Below are positions 1 through 6,790 of a stretch of 64,000 bases of DNA, piece by piece; the stretch's first letter is position 1; every line of letters starts with the position of its first letter. A program made the translations under genes and the position numbers. The notes beneath the pieces are model-generated. The model was not told the origin of the DNA and ran no database searches. It saw only the letters and a list, made by a program, of their open reading frames with translations. The stretch lies in assembly GCF_003991155.1 (NCBI RefSeq), contig NZ_CP031293.1; one strand, written 5' to 3'. This DNA is from Escherichia coli (GTDB taxonomy: Bacteria > Pseudomonadota > Gammaproteobacteria > Enterobacterales > Enterobacteriaceae).

Positions 1-1272
1 CTTGCCGAGTCCGGAGAACGAAAAACCGCAGTGGACAAATTATTAATGAAGCCCCTGTACCAGCAGGAGATGCAGTTATATTCCAGATACAAAAGTGAAC
101 TGGCTGTCTGGAAAAACAAGGAAGAGCTTTTAAAGGCTCAGAAAAAAGCATTGTTGTCAAAACTGAATAAAGAACTCCGCAAAGGCGCGGATGAGTCAGA
201 AACCCTCAGACAACTGGAAGTACTTCAGAAAAACAGTGCGGAAGAACCTGTGAGGTATAAATTCATTTTTAATGATGCCACGACTGCGGCAATTAAGAAT
301 CAGCTTTGTGGTAAATGGCGTTCAGTGGGTATTATGTCAGATGAAGCCGGTATTATATTTGATGGATATACCCTGTCTGAGTTGCCTTTTATTAACAAAA
401 TGTGGGATGGCTCTGTATTGTCTGTGGACAGAAAGAATGAACCCGAACAGATGATTGAAAATGCCAGAATGACGTTATCCCTCATGGTGCAACCCGGTCT
501 TTTTGACCGATATATGGAGCGAAAAGGTTCTGTTGCCAGGGACAGTGGTTTTCTTGCCCGTTGTCTTATCAGTAAACCTGCAACCACGCAGGGGAAACGC
601 TTTATTAACGGAGCTGTGATTCCGGGAGGATCATTAACGGCATTTCATGAACGATTAATGGAACTGGCCAGAGGCAGTATTGAAAAATCCAGTGAGGATG
701 AACGGTATTGTCTGCATTTTTCGCCTGAAGCGCAAAAAATATTTATTGAGCACTATAATGTTCTGGAGCAGGATTTATCCCCTTCCGGACCCTTAAGCCC
801 GTTTCGGGGACATGTTTCAAAAAAAACAGAAAACATTGCAAGAATTGCAGCGTTATTTCAGTATTTCAGCTATGGTGAAGGGAAAATCTCTGCCGATATC
901 ATGACGTCTGCTGTCGTAATAAGTTCGTGGTACACAGATGAATATAAAAAATTATTTGCGTTACCTGATGAATCTGAACTGCAGCAGAAGGACGCCGAGG
1001 AGCTGTTCGACTGGCTCATTGAGGAGTGCCGCGGAGAATGCCCGCCCCGTGTCAGGAAAAATTATATTCTCCAGTGTGGCCCGGGCCGGTTCAGAAACAG
1101 GAAAAAACTGAACGCATTGCTGAACATTCTTGAATCTCAGTTCAGGCTTTCTGTCGTGCCGGAAGGAAAAACCATGTATGTTCTGCTTCCCCAGATAGCC
1201 AGTTTAAAGTTGTCTGATGTCTCTGGTATTTTTACCTCGGGTTATCACTACAATAAGCTGAGAGCGAAGTAA
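1..1272 (+). CDS. YfjI/DUF3987-like protein of P4-type integrative elements; 5' end lies outside the window
   Basis: Frame 1 is open from base 1 with no stop before the first ATG at 31, so the gene is truncated by the window edge. Conserved blocks SDEAGIIFDG, MVQPGLFDRY and GFLARCL fit the YfjI/DUF3987 family as I recall it. Confidence 0.55.
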   Translation, partial: LAESGERKTAVDKLLMKPLYQQEMQLYSRYKSELAVWKNKEELLKAQKKALLSKLNKELRKGADESETLRQLEVLQKNSAEEPVRYKFIFNDATTAAIKNQLCGKWRSVGIMSDEAGIIFDGYTLSELPFINKMWDGSVLSVDRKNEPEQMIENARMTLSLMVQPGLFDRYMERKGSVARDSGFLARCLISKPATTQGKRFINGAVIPGGSLTAFHERLMELARGSIEKSSEDERYCLHFSPEAQKIFIEHYNVLEQDLSPSGPLSPFRGHVSKKTENIARIAALFQYFSYGEGKISADIMTSAVVISSWYTDEYKKLFALPDESELQQKDAEELFDWLIEECRGECPPRVRKNYILQCGPGRFRNRKKLNALLNILESQFRLSVVPEGKTMYVLLPQIASLKLSDVSGIFTSGYHYNKLRAK

Positions 1273-1331
1273 CCGGTGAGCAGTTTTTCTCCATTATGCT
1301 TCAGACTTAGATGATTGATTATTATTGGGAT

Positions 1332-1371
1332 TTCATCACCGATATTCAGATGTATGAATATCGGTGATGAA
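1332..1371. terminator. Perfect 17-bp inverted repeat (TTCATCACCGATATTCA / TGAATATCGGTGATGAA, 6-nt loop) between convergent genes; possible bidirectional terminator or protein-binding palindrome
   Basis: Read directly from the sequence; it sits between the stop of the + strand gene (1272) and the stop of the - strand gene (1594). The stem is AT-rich, so a terminator role is uncertain. Confidence 0.35.
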
Positions 1372-1593
1372 CTAAAGCTCAGGAGCTGCGTGGTGGTGAT
1401 GAATCAACAGGCATATAACTGATACCCGCCGGTCAGAAGTTCCAGCCTGCGACTTTCCTGTCTGCGTGCCCGCAGTCCGGCGTTCAGGTGCAGCGTGTGA
1501 CAGAACGCACGGAGAGCGAAACGGCAGGCAGACAGGCCGTTCAGTCAGCCCTGGCACCCTGCCCGGATACCAGCTTCCCTGAAACAACTGGCA

Positions 1594-2202
1594 TCAGGTG
1601 CGCTTATCGTCAACCGTTGTGCGGTATGCCAGGAGCACGTACTGATCCATCAGATCCGTCAGTGCTGCGCTCTGCTTCTGACGGTTGATGATCCATTCCT
1701 CCAGCTCTTTTTCTGATTTCCGTTTCAGATTCTCCGTCCAGTCGTCAAGGCAGTTTCCGGTCATTAAATCAAGCCAGCAAAGCCAGACCAGTTTGAGGCG
1801 CAACTCCGTGCCACCAAACTGACGGAAGAGGCTGATCAGTTTATTTGCCAGCGAACGCTGCCTCAGACGTTCACATTCAGACAGGAGAATGCCTTCCAGC
1901 ATCGGATGATGAACCAGCAGATGTTCACTGGTGCATAAATTCACTATCAGATCATCATCCAGGGGCGGCGTGGTCCGTTTGTCCGGACCATAAATCAGCC
2001 GGTGCAGACTCTGGGGTACGATGGCAATCTCCGGTTTTTCACCATTGAATGACACCCACCCGGGCGTCAGATTATGGAAGTAGTAGATATTCGGATGACA
2101 CACGCCCCAGGATACGGCGTGCCGGGTGAAGCCGGTCAGCCATTTCTGGTAGCTTTCGTGGAGCAGCTCGTAACGGGTCTGATACTGTGGTTTCATTTTC
2201 AT
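1594..2202 (-). CDS. Hypothetical protein (202 aa), co-oriented downstream of the alpA-like gene
   Basis: ORF track 1594..2343; I place the start at the internal ATG (MKMKPQYQ...) at 2202, which has a GAGGAA ribosome-binding site upstream. I recognise no family. Confidence 0.5.
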   Translation of the reverse strand: MKMKPQYQTRYELLHESYQKWLTGFTRHAVSWGVCHPNIYYFHNLTPGWVSFNGEKPEIAIVPQSLHRLIYGPDKRTTPPLDDDLIVNLCTSEHLLVHHPMLEGILLSECERLRQRSLANKLISLFRQFGGTELRLKLVWLCWLDLMTGNCLDDWTENLKRKSEKELEEWIINRQKQSAALTDLMDQYVLLAYRTTVDDKRT

Positions 2203-2282
2203 ATTCCTCACGGGGGATAACAGGCAGCAGAACGCCGCCGGCAGGCCGGAGACTGCGTCTGCTGCAGATGAACGGTTAAGAA

Positions 2283-2489
2283 TTACGGACGGGACTGTGC
2301 AATACGCGCCTGCAGCCAGGCTTCCACTTCGCTTTTCAGCCATCGGGAGCTGCGGCCCATTTTGATGGGCGCAGGAAAGTCACCATCCTTGATGAGTTTG
2401 TAAAACCACTTATCGGTCAGGCCGGTCAGTTGAGTGATAAATGCCATGTCGACCATCTGGTCACCCATCAGTGAAACTGGGGTGATCAT
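2283..2489 (-). CDS. alpA: AlpA-family phage regulatory protein (short helix-turn-helix regulator of P4-like elements)
   Basis: C-terminal 68 aa (MITPVSLMGDQMVDMAFITQLTGLTDKWFYKLIKDGDFPAPIKMGRSSRWLKSEVEAWL...) match the AlpA family pattern; ATG at 2489 follows a GGAGG ribosome-binding site. The longer upstream extension in the ORF track is probably not translated. Confidence 0.75.
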   Translation of the reverse strand: MITPVSLMGDQMVDMAFITQLTGLTDKWFYKLIKDGDFPAPIKMGRSSRWLKSEVEAWLQARIAQSRP

Positions 2490-3192
2490 GAGAATGTTCC
2501 TCCGGATGTTGTTAAACCAGCCGGTGTGGTCATGAAAACAACGCACCACCTTCACCGGCATAACAACCGGGGAGAAACGTAAAAAATAATCGGGAATGTG
2601 ACCGCCAGGAGATAAACGGGGAGGTTACGGTGGCTGAGCCGTACCGGTATGCCGGGTGGTTGTTACGAAACGATGCTTCCGCACGCGCGCGCGATAAAGA
2701 AGGGATGATTTTCGTGAGGAAGAGGGGAAAACTGGCGTTCTGATAATTGCAGAGTTATTTACGGGGCGGTTACGATGGGGCAGACCGTGTCCGGTGGGCA
2801 GGCGACAGGTATCACCGATGGGATAAGACTGTCTGATTGGTATTATAAATATATAAGAGAGAGCAAACACATGAGATCAAATACATGAGTTCATATATGT
2901 GAAATAAACACGGTGAGTGTGATCAGTGGGCATGATGAGAACGCAGTAGCAACAGACTGCGCTATCCCTGATAGCTGGCGTATAACCTGCGTATATAAAA
3001 CGTACCAGCAACGCACGTGAACAGAGTGCATTAAGCATCCGTCGTTGACACCGACCTGGTGAGTGACAGTCTGAGAGACCGGTTAAGTGGTGGTACGGGA
3101 GTAATGAGTTTGGGGAGGGTACCAGAATGTCAGTCTGGTACGGTATGCTGACAGTATCACGTTAATTGCAGCATAAAGTGATGAGAGGCTAA

Positions 3193-3390
3193 TGGAAGTT
3201 AAAACCAGAGCAGTTCCGTCGTTGTTCATCCCGGGAGACACTGGAAAAAGTGATTTCCCACACGCGTTATAAGCTTACTCCAGCGGAGATGGAAGCCTTC
3301 AACTCTGCGGTCGATCACCGACTGGCAGAACTGACAATGAACAAGCTTTACGATCGTGTTCCCGCTTCAGTCTGGAAATATGTCATCTGA
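3193..3390 (+). pseudogene. 5'-truncated gene remnant; open frame with no start codon
   Basis: Frame open immediately after a TAA at about 3190, reading ...KLTPAEMEAFNSAVDHRLAELTMNKLYDRVPASVWKYVI*, with no plausible start and no ribosome-binding site. Consistent with a decayed gene of the integrative-element remnant. Confidence 0.3.
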
Positions 3391-3734
3391 GCGTTCGGTA
3401 ATCACAACTGCATCGCGCCAGGTGTTATCCGCTTTGTGATTCTTATTGGCTCTTCTCAGGTTATTAAAAGCTGAATATGTTCCTGTTGTCGGGAACCAGG
3501 ATAATACCGGGAACGTTAAGCGGTATAGCGACAACAAAGAATTCGAAATCAAAAGGGAATGGTGTACGGAGGTGTAGGCGGTAATGGGCCGATTTTCGGG
3601 CATTACCGACCTCTGCTGAGGTTTTCTCGTATTTATCGGGGAGCTGGTGCGTTACTGTCACTGTCTGGCACAGCAAACGCAGAGGTGGCGGGGCGCTCTG
3701 CTCCGCTGACTCCGGCTAATCTCTCCCCTTTTAC

Positions 3735-3932
3735 CTACTGCAACAGTACAAATACACTGACGCCTGAAACGACAGCCAGAATCAGCACAGGCAGTAACGT
3801 CAGTAGACAAAGCAGACGATCGGTATTTCGGTAATAATCGAAGGGATCTGCTGACACGTAGCCCGGGCAACATTCCGTATTATGAGGGATGGCGTTATCA
3901 CAATCCCTGCACACCGTTTTGCGTATCACCAT
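3735..3932 (-). CDS. Small Cys-rich predicted membrane protein (65 aa), hypothetical
   Basis: ATG at 3932 preceded by a strong GAGGAGG ribosome-binding site. The N-terminus has CxxC...CC cysteines, followed by one hydrophobic segment (LLCLLTLLPVLILAVVSGVSVFVLL). Confidence 0.35.
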   Translation of the reverse strand: MVIRKTVCRDCDNAIPHNTECCPGYVSADPFDYYRNTDRLLCLLTLLPVLILAVVSGVSVFVLLQ

Positions 3933-4135
3933 CACGTCCTCCTCACAATCTTATCCGTAACCGGCTTTTTGCATTAAAAAAACAACGCTGAAAATTCAGC
4001 CGTCAGTCCGGAGACGACAGTCGGGTTATCTCAGAGTGCCTGAGATATTGCCTGGTTGGAGATCACTTCAGGGACTCTGCGCATTTTTTACGGCGTGGTT
4101 AATCCGTATGAACGAAACCATACGGAGATTTAACC

Positions 4136-4705
4136 ATGACCTACAAATACAACCCCTTCTGGCAGCAACGTATTCGTGAGACGGTGCGGCACGCACTGGA
4201 TGTTCATCCCCGTCTGACGGCATTGCGGGTTGATCTGCGTCTCCCGGATGTACCGGCAGCAACGGACGCGGCTGTGATATCCCGCTTCATCAATGCCCTG
4301 AAAGCCCGAATCGACGCTTACCAGAAACGTAAGCATCGGGAAGGTAAACGCGTGCATTCCTCGACCCTGCATTACGCCTGGGCCCGGGAGTTCGGGGAGC
4401 TTAAAGGCAAAAAACACTATCACCTGCTGCTGCTGGTCAACCGGGATACCTGGTGTCGTGCCGGCGATTACCGCGCTCCGGGGTCACTGGCCGGAATGAT
4501 TAAACAGGCGTGGTGCAGTGCCCTGGGAGTGGATGTCGGGTGCCATGCCACGCTGGTGCATTTTCCGGCCTGGCCGGCGGTGTGGCTGGAACGCGATGAT
4601 GATGCTGGTTTACGGGATATGCTGAAGCGTGCTGACTATCTCGCGAAAGAGTACACCAAAGTCAACGGTACCGGTGAGCGCAATTTTGGCTGTAGCCGGA
4701 GTTGA
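4136..4705 (+). CDS. YagK/YfjJ (inovirus Gp2-like) family protein
   Basis: GGAGA ribosome-binding site before ATG 4136. Blocks ISRFI, KRKHREGKRV, KHYHLLLLVNRDTWC, GDYR, SLAG, AWCSALG, LVHF, YLAKE and the C-terminal RNFGCSRS match my recollection of the YfjJ/YagK family found in CP4-type and P4-like islands. Confidence 0.55.
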   Translation: MTYKYNPFWQQRIRETVRHALDVHPRLTALRVDLRLPDVPAATDAAVISRFINALKARIDAYQKRKHREGKRVHSSTLHYAWAREFGELKGKKHYHLLLLVNRDTWCRAGDYRAPGSLAGMIKQAWCSALGVDVGCHATLVHFPAWPAVWLERDDDAGLRDMLKRADYLAKEYTKVNGTGERNFGCSRS

Positions 4706-4964
4706 GCACGACTGGCGCGCCAATATCCGGCAAACCAAAAGTATGGGTTGTTGTCTGGCGGCAACGATGTATCCACTCGCCCACTGACTGTTTTTTACGT
4801 CAGTGTTCCATTGTGTGACAACCACAGTGCTGTAACAGCAACCAGCCTGCTTTACCCAAACTCCAGTCCAGATTTTAACTGAACCGCCATTCACACCCTG
4901 ACCACGCTGCCCGTACCGGGACGGCTGTTGCCTGCGTGTCGTCTGACGGTAAGGAACATATACT

Positions 4965-5366
4965 ATGTACGCAAAATCCTTTCTCGCTCTTGATAGCAAC
5001 GGACGTCTGACGGGCGCCCGTACTGCACAGGCCGCACCTTATGCTCACTACACCTGCCACTTGTGTGGCAGTGCACTCAGATACCATCCGCAATACGACA
5101 CTGAACTTCCCTGGTTTGAACACACTGACGACAGGCTGACAGAGCACGGTCAACAGTGCCCTTATGTCAGGCCGGAGCGCAGAGAAATACAGTTGATTAA
5201 ACGTCTGCAGCAATTCGTACCGGATGCCTTACCCGTGGTGCGTAAAGCCAGCTGGCACTGCAGACAATGTCACCACGATTATTATGGGGAGCAGTACTGC
5301 ACAAACTGCCAGACCGGAGGATTCAGTATTCCCCGGACAACTCAGGAGGAAATATGCGAATTCTGA
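4965..5366 (+). CDS. Zinc-ribbon protein with a CoiA-like N-terminal CxxC...PWFEH motif (paralog 1)
   Basis: AAGGAA ribosome-binding site before ATG 4965. Motifs CHLCGSAL...PWFEH and C-terminal CRQCHH...CTNCQTGG indicate two Cys4-type metal sites. Confidence 0.5.
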   Translation: MYAKSFLALDSNGRLTGARTAQAAPYAHYTCHLCGSALRYHPQYDTELPWFEHTDDRLTEHGQQCPYVRPERREIQLIKRLQQFVPDALPVVRKASWHCRQCHHDYYGEQYCTNCQTGGFSIPRTTQEEICEF

Positions 5367-5788
5367 ACTGTTATATGGCGAATGACAGCAAAGGCCATTT
5401 TGTTACGGCGAAAGAAGCTGCGAAGCACAACCGACAGGACGTTTTGTGCTGTGTGTCCTGTGGATGCCCGTTAACACTTCAGCGGGGCAATGACGGACAA
5501 CCACCGTGGTTTGAACATGACCAGATGACTGTCGCTGAAAAAATCCTGCTGCGATGTACCTGGCTTGACCCGGCAGAGAAAGAGGCCCGTCGTTTGCATC
5601 TGCAGGGCATGACGGTTCCGGATTATACGGTGAAGGTGAGAAAGTGGTTTTGTGTGATGTGTGACGAAGATTATGAGGGGGAAAAGTGCTGCCCACGCTG
5701 CGGTACCGGGGTATACAGCAGGGCGTGGGGGCGGCAGGAGGTGCCGTCGGAAGATGCCAGGGCTGATAATCCGTTACAGAGGCTGTAA
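5354..5788 (+). CDS. Zinc-ribbon protein with a CoiA-like N-terminal CxxC...PWFEH motif (paralog 2)
   Basis: I chose the internal ATG at 5354 because of the AGGAGG ribosome-binding site. Same architecture as the upstream gene (CVSCGCPL...PWFEH ... CVMCDEDY...CPRCGTG); overlaps the upstream gene by 13 bp, suggesting translational coupling. Confidence 0.5.
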   Translation: MRILNCYMANDSKGHFVTAKEAAKHNRQDVLCCVSCGCPLTLQRGNDGQPPWFEHDQMTVAEKILLRCTWLDPAEKEARRLHLQGMTVPDYTVKVRKWFCVMCDEDYEGEKCCPRCGTGVYSRAWGRQEVPSEDARADNPLQRL

Positions 5789-6790
5789 TGGTTGCCTCCG
5801 GAGCAGTTTGCGGTAATGCCGTTCCCGGGAATGGATTGCCAGTGCGGGGACTGTGGAGCTTAATTCCGGTGTTGGTGGCCTTTCCGTTGATTTTGAGCCA
5901 ACAGCCCTCCTGTGACTGACAGGCTGCCTCGTCATTCCATTCGTATCTCCAGTAACAGGGGGTTGTATTGTATTTTAATGTGCCGGTTCAGGCGTGCGTT
6001 TCCCGGCGCGTCTGCACCGGCTTAACCAAATTCAACAGGGATAAAATAGTGTAAATAACCGAAGTATTACTTGAAGAATCGGGGGAAGCATCCGGGGTTT
6101 TATTCAACAGGCATGGGAGGCTCCGGCTCTGACAGACATTGTACTGTGGAATGTTGTTACAGGTTGGGGCGGCAACCGTGCCAGGAGACCATGAGCCGTT
6201 CACGGCATTAAAGGCCACACTTCAGTCGTTTACATTCCCTGTGGTGGCAGGCATCTTCCGTTAAGGCGTCAGAGCGTTACCAACGTTATGTTGTCATGGC
6301 TCACCTTTCATAGTCGATGCTTATCTGGTGACTGAAACTAGCCGCAGATAAAGAGTGTGAAGTTGATACCATGGAGTGGAGTGACGTGCAGGCAGGAGAT
6401 TCGCTCTATGCAGGGTTGTGAGATGAATTCAAACCGGCTGTCAGCGCCAGTAATATTTGAAGATTCGTCCGGTTGTTATCCAGTGTGCATTAAAAACCCA
6501 GACATTATGGACAATACAACGGCTTCCATAACAGGGAGGAGCCTGTTTATTATCCGGGCGTAATGACTAACCTTTGTGGGCTTTTTCCCGTCGTGCTTTT
6601 AACGTTGAAGGCATTTTCTGCCTGCCGATTCAGGACAGCGACAAAAGCCATATCAGACTATTGGTCAATGATGACCAGCGTCTGGAGTAGATGATAAGCC
6701 AAATTGATAAACTGGAATATGTGATGAAAGTGCAACGTAATCAGTCCAATCCGACGATGTTTAACAAGAGTACGGTGTTTTTTCAGTAAG

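Follow-up and report, generated by a model that had tools for sequence, protein, structure and literature searches.

A perfect inverted repeat where two transcription units converge

What does a long, perfect palindrome without a U-tract do at the point where two transcription units converge? The question is raised by a 64,000-nucleotide (nt) stretch of Escherichia coli DNA (contig NZ_CP031293.1, assembly GCF_003991155.1), hereafter the window, in which an inverted repeat at positions 1332–1371 lies downstream of a YfjI-family gene on the + strand and, on the − strand, downstream of an operon with an AlpA-like gene and a gene for a 200-amino-acid (aa) protein. On balance, we favor the reading that this hairpin is a non-canonical 3'-end or terminator element common to the yfjI mRNA and the alpA-like/200-aa operon. 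It is built from the following parts:

1332–1348, left arm, TTCATCACCGATATTCA; 1332–1340 make up the basal stem conserved among alleles (core CATCACC), and 1341–1348 the apical, allele-specific part
1349–1354, loop GATGTA, 6 nt
1355–1371, right arm, TGAATATCGGTGATGAA, pairing with the left arm

The sequence-only reading of this locus had described an exact palindrome with 17-bp arms and an AT-rich stem, and both descriptions hold: a repeat finder returned arms of 17 nt that are 100% complementary across a spacing of 6 nt, and the arms have a G+C content of 35%. No other perfect inverted repeat of short range in the 64 kb is as long, and the 17-nt arms compare with a maximum of 8–12 nt in mononucleotide shuffles of the window (n = 20). 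The folding free energy (dG), a calculation which that reading had proposed as a check, is −25.6 kcal/mol for the 40-mer RNA of the + strand (z = −7.6) and −24.7 kcal/mol for that of the − strand (z = −8.8), and none of 200 shuffled 40-mers was as stable. Folded as single-stranded DNA (ssDNA), the 40-mer reaches −16.8 kcal/mol. The palindrome is real, non-random and strong on both strands.

The absence of a U-tract on either side, which had likewise been noted, is borne out by the tails that flank the stem, CUAAAGCU (also given as CTAAAGCT) on the + strand and AUCCCAAU (also given as ATCCCAAT) on the − strand, neither of which has a U-tract (about 5 or more U in the 8 nt directly past the stem). 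A terminator consensus scan was also empty, finding no terminator at the hairpin, in the window or in allele L002 (described below). Scanning revealed no promoter-like site near the hairpin, an Rfam scan of window positions 1–6000 gave no match at E ≤ 1, and no paper turned up when the literature was searched for the arm sequence.

The stem is retained in five alleles

We used a conserved 26-mer of yfjI as an anchor to sample alleles, which yielded 78 metagenome loci that were added to the E. coli loci. The segment that varies comprises the last ~25 codons of yfjI and the region downstream, and it occurs in five alleles, each with its own stem:

Allele W, this window: TTCATCACCGATATTCA / TGAATATCGGTGATGAA, perfect over 17 bp
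Allele W', locus L077: TTTATCAACGATATTCA / TGAATATCGATGATGAA
Allele X, 23 loci: CCGTCACCCcC...GaGGGTGACGG
Allele L002, locus L002: TTCGTCACCaCCA...TGaTGGTGACGgAA
Allele L003, locus L003: TCCGTCATCCTC...GAGGGTGACGGA

In all five alleles the most stable local structure sits at the same offset, with a dG of −16 to −30 kcal/mol in 60-nt windows scanned along both strands and of −16.5 to −26.1 kcal/mol for the excised hairpins of 38–40 nt. When alleles W and X are compared, the flanks are ~50% identical (36 of 67 positions upstream and 15 of 31 downstream), and within the stem the apical part is identical at 10 of 25 positions and the basal part at 13 of 18; pairing runs throughout the stem in both. 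Double changes keep Watson-Crick pairing at four stem positions, namely T-A/C-G (with a T·G intermediate in L002), A-T/G-C, G-C/C-G/A-T, and T-A/C-G. In L002 and X, the stem lies ~40 nt from each of the two stop codons within a 114-nt intergenic gap, and that gap holds no second terminator-like site. The left arm of allele X also shows run-length variation (C5/C6) among metagenome contigs. A strand assignment based on G·U versus C·A mismatches was abandoned, as both kinds are present and neither RNA strand is favored.

A candidate 3'-end element of two convergent mRNAs

A terminator-type reading is supported because the hairpin is kept with compensatory changes at one position in every allele, and because in the alleles free of a relic gene end (see below) it is the sole strong structure and lies about equally close to both stops. 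Since the U-tract is missing on both strands in all five alleles, the hairpin is not a canonical intrinsic terminator. The bidirectional terminator that the sequence-only reading had put forward therefore survives in a non-canonical form, as a conserved, compensated hairpin between convergent units, and fails in the canonical intrinsic one. According to the reading that we favor, the palindrome would form a stable stem-loop in the 3' untranslated region (UTR) of the yfjI mRNA and, reversed, in the alpA-like/200-aa transcript, both units being transcribed into it. As it emerges, the hairpin would pause polymerases coming from either direction, and converging polymerases would then run into each other and be removed at a fixed point. 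In addition, the hairpin would block 3'→5' exonucleases, and the 3' ends of both mRNAs would be fixed and stabilized, as with repetitive extragenic palindromic (REP) hairpins.

Canonical intrinsic terminators, whose stems usually measure 5–14 bp, also place a stem-loop a few tens of nt past a stop codon, but the present hairpin differs from them in its AT-rich stem of 17 bp and in lacking a U-tract on either strand. A closer likeness is found in the collision-type bidirectional termination described for hundreds of convergent gene pairs of E. coli (Ju et al. 2019, SEnd-seq; Wang, Watters, Ju and Liu, bioRxiv 10.1101/2022.10.23.513370). Such bidirectional terminators reportedly differ in appearance from intrinsic ones and act through a hairpin-induced pause and RNA polymerase collisions; the hairpin is needed for polymerase pausing, which leads to head-on and trailing collisions at a defined position (Ju et al. 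2019; bioRxiv 10.1101/2022.10.23.513370). Our locus shares with them the short gap between convergent units, the hairpin on both strands and the lack of a proper U-tract, while its stem is longer (17 bp) and more AT-rich (35% G+C) than usual, and in the window allele a 222-nt spacer bearing the relic separates it from the present − strand gene. REP hairpins in 3' UTRs, in turn, have been described as a combined terminator and stabilizer and linked to higher expression of convergent pairs (Harris et al., bioRxiv 10.64898/2026.03.23.713779). Like REP elements and bacterial interspersed mosaic elements (BIMEs), the hairpin is a palindrome that lies outside genes, at their 3' ends, and lacks a U-tract, and it would be expected to block exonucleases and to limit read-through in part. 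In contrast to them, it has no REP consensus, is present in a single copy and is bound to one island module. An assignment to REP/BIME or another dispersed palindrome was rejected on the grounds of its single context among the genomes described below and the empty Rfam scan.

The E. coli EC93 plasmid pCP127 (L115, 3959–3989) carries, 25 nt past the stop of a yfjI homologue with 39% identity, an unrelated 13-bp hairpin (TAGTCTCCTCTGC/GCGGAGGAGACTA) without a U-tract. It was counted in favor of the 3'-end reading.

Several points weigh against this reading. With no U-tract on either strand in any allele, the hairpin by itself should be a weak intrinsic terminator, and a search for a clear C-rich, G-poor (C>G) Rho-loading tract found none that was convincing. 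Transcription of such island genes may be low, in which case collisions would be rare, and in the window allele the present − strand gene ends 222 nt from the hairpin. The pair-preserving changes fit a palindrome acting at the DNA level equally well, and with five alleles only, the covariation has little statistical power. Allele X has C·A mismatches in its stem. Between W' and W, 3 of the 40 hairpin positions differ, about the same rate as in the surrounding 750 nt (5.5%), and among these changes one pair goes from C-G to an uncompensated A·A (1339/1364) and another to G·U. Because W' carries this mismatch and this G·U at the background rate, the perfect pairing of the window allele is under no visible constraint; pairing as such has, across the alleles, been kept long-term. 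The perfect 17-bp arms probably arose when a shorter ancestral stem was lengthened recently in this lineage, and are probably not needed for function; template switching of the 'quasipalindrome correction' kind may possibly lie behind them.

Gene ends, relic and island context

The hairpin is surrounded by the following features, and the RefSeq annotation contains the same genes:

1–1272, + strand, 3' part of a YfjI-family gene (DUF3987 in Pfam, E = 3e-75; 'DNA helicase' in PHROG), whose start lies upstream of the window
1395–1403, the 9-mer GGTGATGAA for a third time, matching the outer 9 nt of the right arm (1363–1371), 23 nt downstream of that arm and abutting the relic stop; its relevance is uncertain
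1404–1502, − strand, in-frame relic, the last 32 codons and stop of the 200-aa gene in an older allele of the L002/X type
1594–2196, − strand, gene for a 200-aa protein with no assigned function, a conserved partner of alpA and the last gene of the unit running towards the hairpin
2283–2489, − strand, AlpA-like gene (Phage_AlpA/excisionase-type helix-turn-helix (HTH)), the first gene of the − strand unit

The yfjI-family stop codon (1270–1272) lies 59 nt ahead of the hairpin. On the other side, positions 1396–1500 match, at ~75% nt identity, the end of the 200-aa coding sequence as found in other variants of the island, and the − strand of 1404–1502 translates to CHTLHLNAGLRARRQESRRLELLTGGYQLYAC before its stop, the L002 counterpart being KSHAELERWAVARKREKRELELMIDEYLLYAC, also followed by a stop. 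The relic stop (1404–1406) is 32 nt from the hairpin, a distance that preserves the ancestral convergent arrangement. Most of the 200-aa gene was later replaced by recombination in the window allele, leaving a relic of 33 codons and shifting the stop to 1594. The description of the palindrome as lying between two convergent genes is therefore correct in outline, with yfjI on the + strand and the alpA-like/200-aa operon on the − strand, and needs amending in detail, as the present − strand gene ends some way off and the relic intervenes.

Allele L003 has lost most of the relic. A second long, imperfect stem at 1457–1536, with outer arms CCTGTCTGCGTGCC / GGCAGGCAGACAGG and additional pairs inside them, turns up in the centroid structure of each strand and straddles the junction of the relic and the spacer specific to W and L003; in its place L003 has a local 9-bp hairpin, GGCAGACAG...CTGTCTGCC. 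The third GGTGATGAA copy occurs in this allele only, and a 22-nt deletion removes it in the metagenome variant L047. On the opposite strand it reads TTCATCACCACC, which is similar to the L002 left arm (TTCGTCACCACC). Three potential coding features around the hairpin were considered and dismissed: a 71-aa open reading frame (ORF) on the − strand (1372–1587) that abuts the hairpin lies outside the ancestral frame of the relic and has no family match, a Shine-Dalgarno-like GGAGG with a GTG after the hairpin in L003 is not kept in allele X, and a 61-aa + strand ORF in L002 is a Ser/Arg-rich antisense sequence.

The surroundings form a genomic island of the uropathogenic E. coli (UPEC) type, with kps capsule genes, agn43, cbtA/yeeU, a GTPase gene, hha, a Gp2-family gene and cdiBA. 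Elsewhere, in K-12 CP4-57 (L110), pNDM-CIT (L114) and pCP127, the module is co-directional in the order alpA > yfjI > gp2/yfjJ. In the present island type (window 1–4705), the unit with alpA and, where present, its 200-aa partner is inverted and placed between yfjI and hha/gp2, and it is because of this inversion that there is a convergent junction to hold the hairpin. Structure prediction and a fold search of the 200-aa protein as a possible hairpin-binding protein gave no informative match, and an IMG/VR scan with the C-terminal half of YfjI returned one identical locus only. AlpA-like/200-aa protein pairs 62–90% identical to the enterobacterial ones are also encoded on two contigs of metagenome-assembled genomes labelled 'Bacillota bacterium' and 'Collinsella sp.' (L016 and L030), which are probably mis-binned enterobacterial contigs.

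Alternative explanations

On a first competing view, the hairpin has no selected function and came about by mutation in an intergenic region with an old inverted repeat, which a small inverted duplication or template switching within a strand then made perfect in this lineage. In favor of this view, the full 17-bp pairing occurs only in a single allele, which is very recent and nearly clonal (identity of at least 98.5% across 1170 genomes), W', the closest relative of that allele, has the uncompensated, background-rate changes described above, the other alleles contain mismatches, there is no U-tract, and the neighborhood is visibly rearranged, as seen in the relic gene end and the imperfect stem at 1457–1536. 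Yet a hairpin of −16 to −30 kcal/mol stands at one position in five of five alleles despite flanks of ~50% identity and entirely different apical sequences, and the four pairs kept through double changes would be hard to obtain without selection for pairing. We therefore regard a functionless by-product as rather unlikely, although it is the strongest of the competitors. A site on duplex DNA bound by a dimer of some island-encoded protein (candidates are the AlpA-like HTH protein, the 200-aa protein and YfjI) strikes us as improbable. This idea, which had been offered as the alternative to a terminator, draws on the perfect symmetry, on the core half-site CRTCAYC/GRTGAYG common to all alleles, on the third 9-mer copy nearby in the window allele and on the DNA-binding proteins encoded next door. 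It is not supported by the comparison of alleles: the spacing of the half-sites varies (22, 22, 16, 17 and 17 nt across the five), as expected of a hairpin rather than of a duplex-DNA dimer site, and the apical stem still pairs although its sequence changes completely from allele to allele. In addition, no half-site was found near the module promoters and no further copies in the 9-kb module; the extended half-site TYCRTCAYC occurs 9 times in the 64 kb against 4.4 expected, with three of the nine in a local cluster and none near a promoter. Palindromic operators of HTH dimers have the same perfect two-fold symmetry, and the variable spacing, the location at gene 3' ends and the absence of promoter copies set the hairpin apart from them.

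The position immediately 3' of a helicase-type replication gene, with an AT-rich stretch ahead of the hairpin, also brings to mind a cis-acting DNA site of the mobile element: an origin- or crr-like site for the YfjI helicase, a hairpin target of the Gp2-family protein, or a recombinase core, given that the 17-6-17 layout of the window allele resembles tyrosine-recombinase core sites, in which inverted arms flank a spacer of 6–8 bp. The analogy for an origin is with P4 alpha and with the origins of Staphylococcus aureus pathogenicity islands (SaPI) and phage-inducible chromosomal islands (PICI), which lie 3' of rep. The half-site seems loosely similar to the P4 type I iteron, TGTTCACC. An iteron origin or a region like the P4 crr was rejected for want of an iteron array, the locus having a single inverted pair, with the 9-mer present three times in this allele and twice in the others. 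The P4 alpha analogy was discarded because YfjI has no sequence match to any solved structure, including any solved origin-binding domain, and because K-12 CP4-57 and pNDM-CIT, with their co-directional alpA > yfjI > gp2 order, have no comparable repeat after yfjI. A recombinase core was likewise dismissed: the 17-6-17 geometry exists in this allele only, the other alleles having 10–14 unpaired or irregular nt between imperfect arms, and the flanks are identical in 1178 of 1178 carriers without alternative junctions. A cis-acting site of the mobile element is accordingly very improbable. The related idea that the hairpin is a structured island site, for example a cruciform or ssDNA hairpin at which YfjI or the Gp2-family protein would initiate replication or mobilization, has a slim chance of being right; if it were, the allele-specific stems would co-vary with the allele-specific C-terminal tail of YfjI.

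Distribution in E. coli and meaning of the hairpin

Of 5426 complete E. coli genomes, 1178 have the 68-nt stretch around the palindrome, in every case on the chromosome, in one context and with identical flanks. Each of these genomes counts two 'places', one for each strand of a single palindrome, which is a single-copy and not a dispersed repeat. The sole common variant across these 68 nt is a T/G polymorphism at 1326, 6 nt upstream of the left arm, with T (as in the window) in ~67 complete genomes and G in ~1105. Outside this arrangement, 27 Enterobacterales loci with distant homologues of the 200-aa protein keep the pair of alpA and the 200-aa gene; none has a downstream yfjI or a conserved hairpin, and the hairpin therefore belongs to the yfjI-convergent arrangement of E. 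coli.

Little is at stake in this assignment, and the finding opens no new question: the hairpin is an ordinary conserved intergenic hairpin that adds an example to a known class. The five natural alleles, with their different stems, mismatches and loop sizes, amount to a natural mutant series for the effects of stem length and perfection on collision-type termination or 3'-end protection. If the 3'-end reading is true, the locus would be one more U-tract-less hairpin serving two convergent units, situated in the core module of an island carried by about one fifth of sequenced E. coli.
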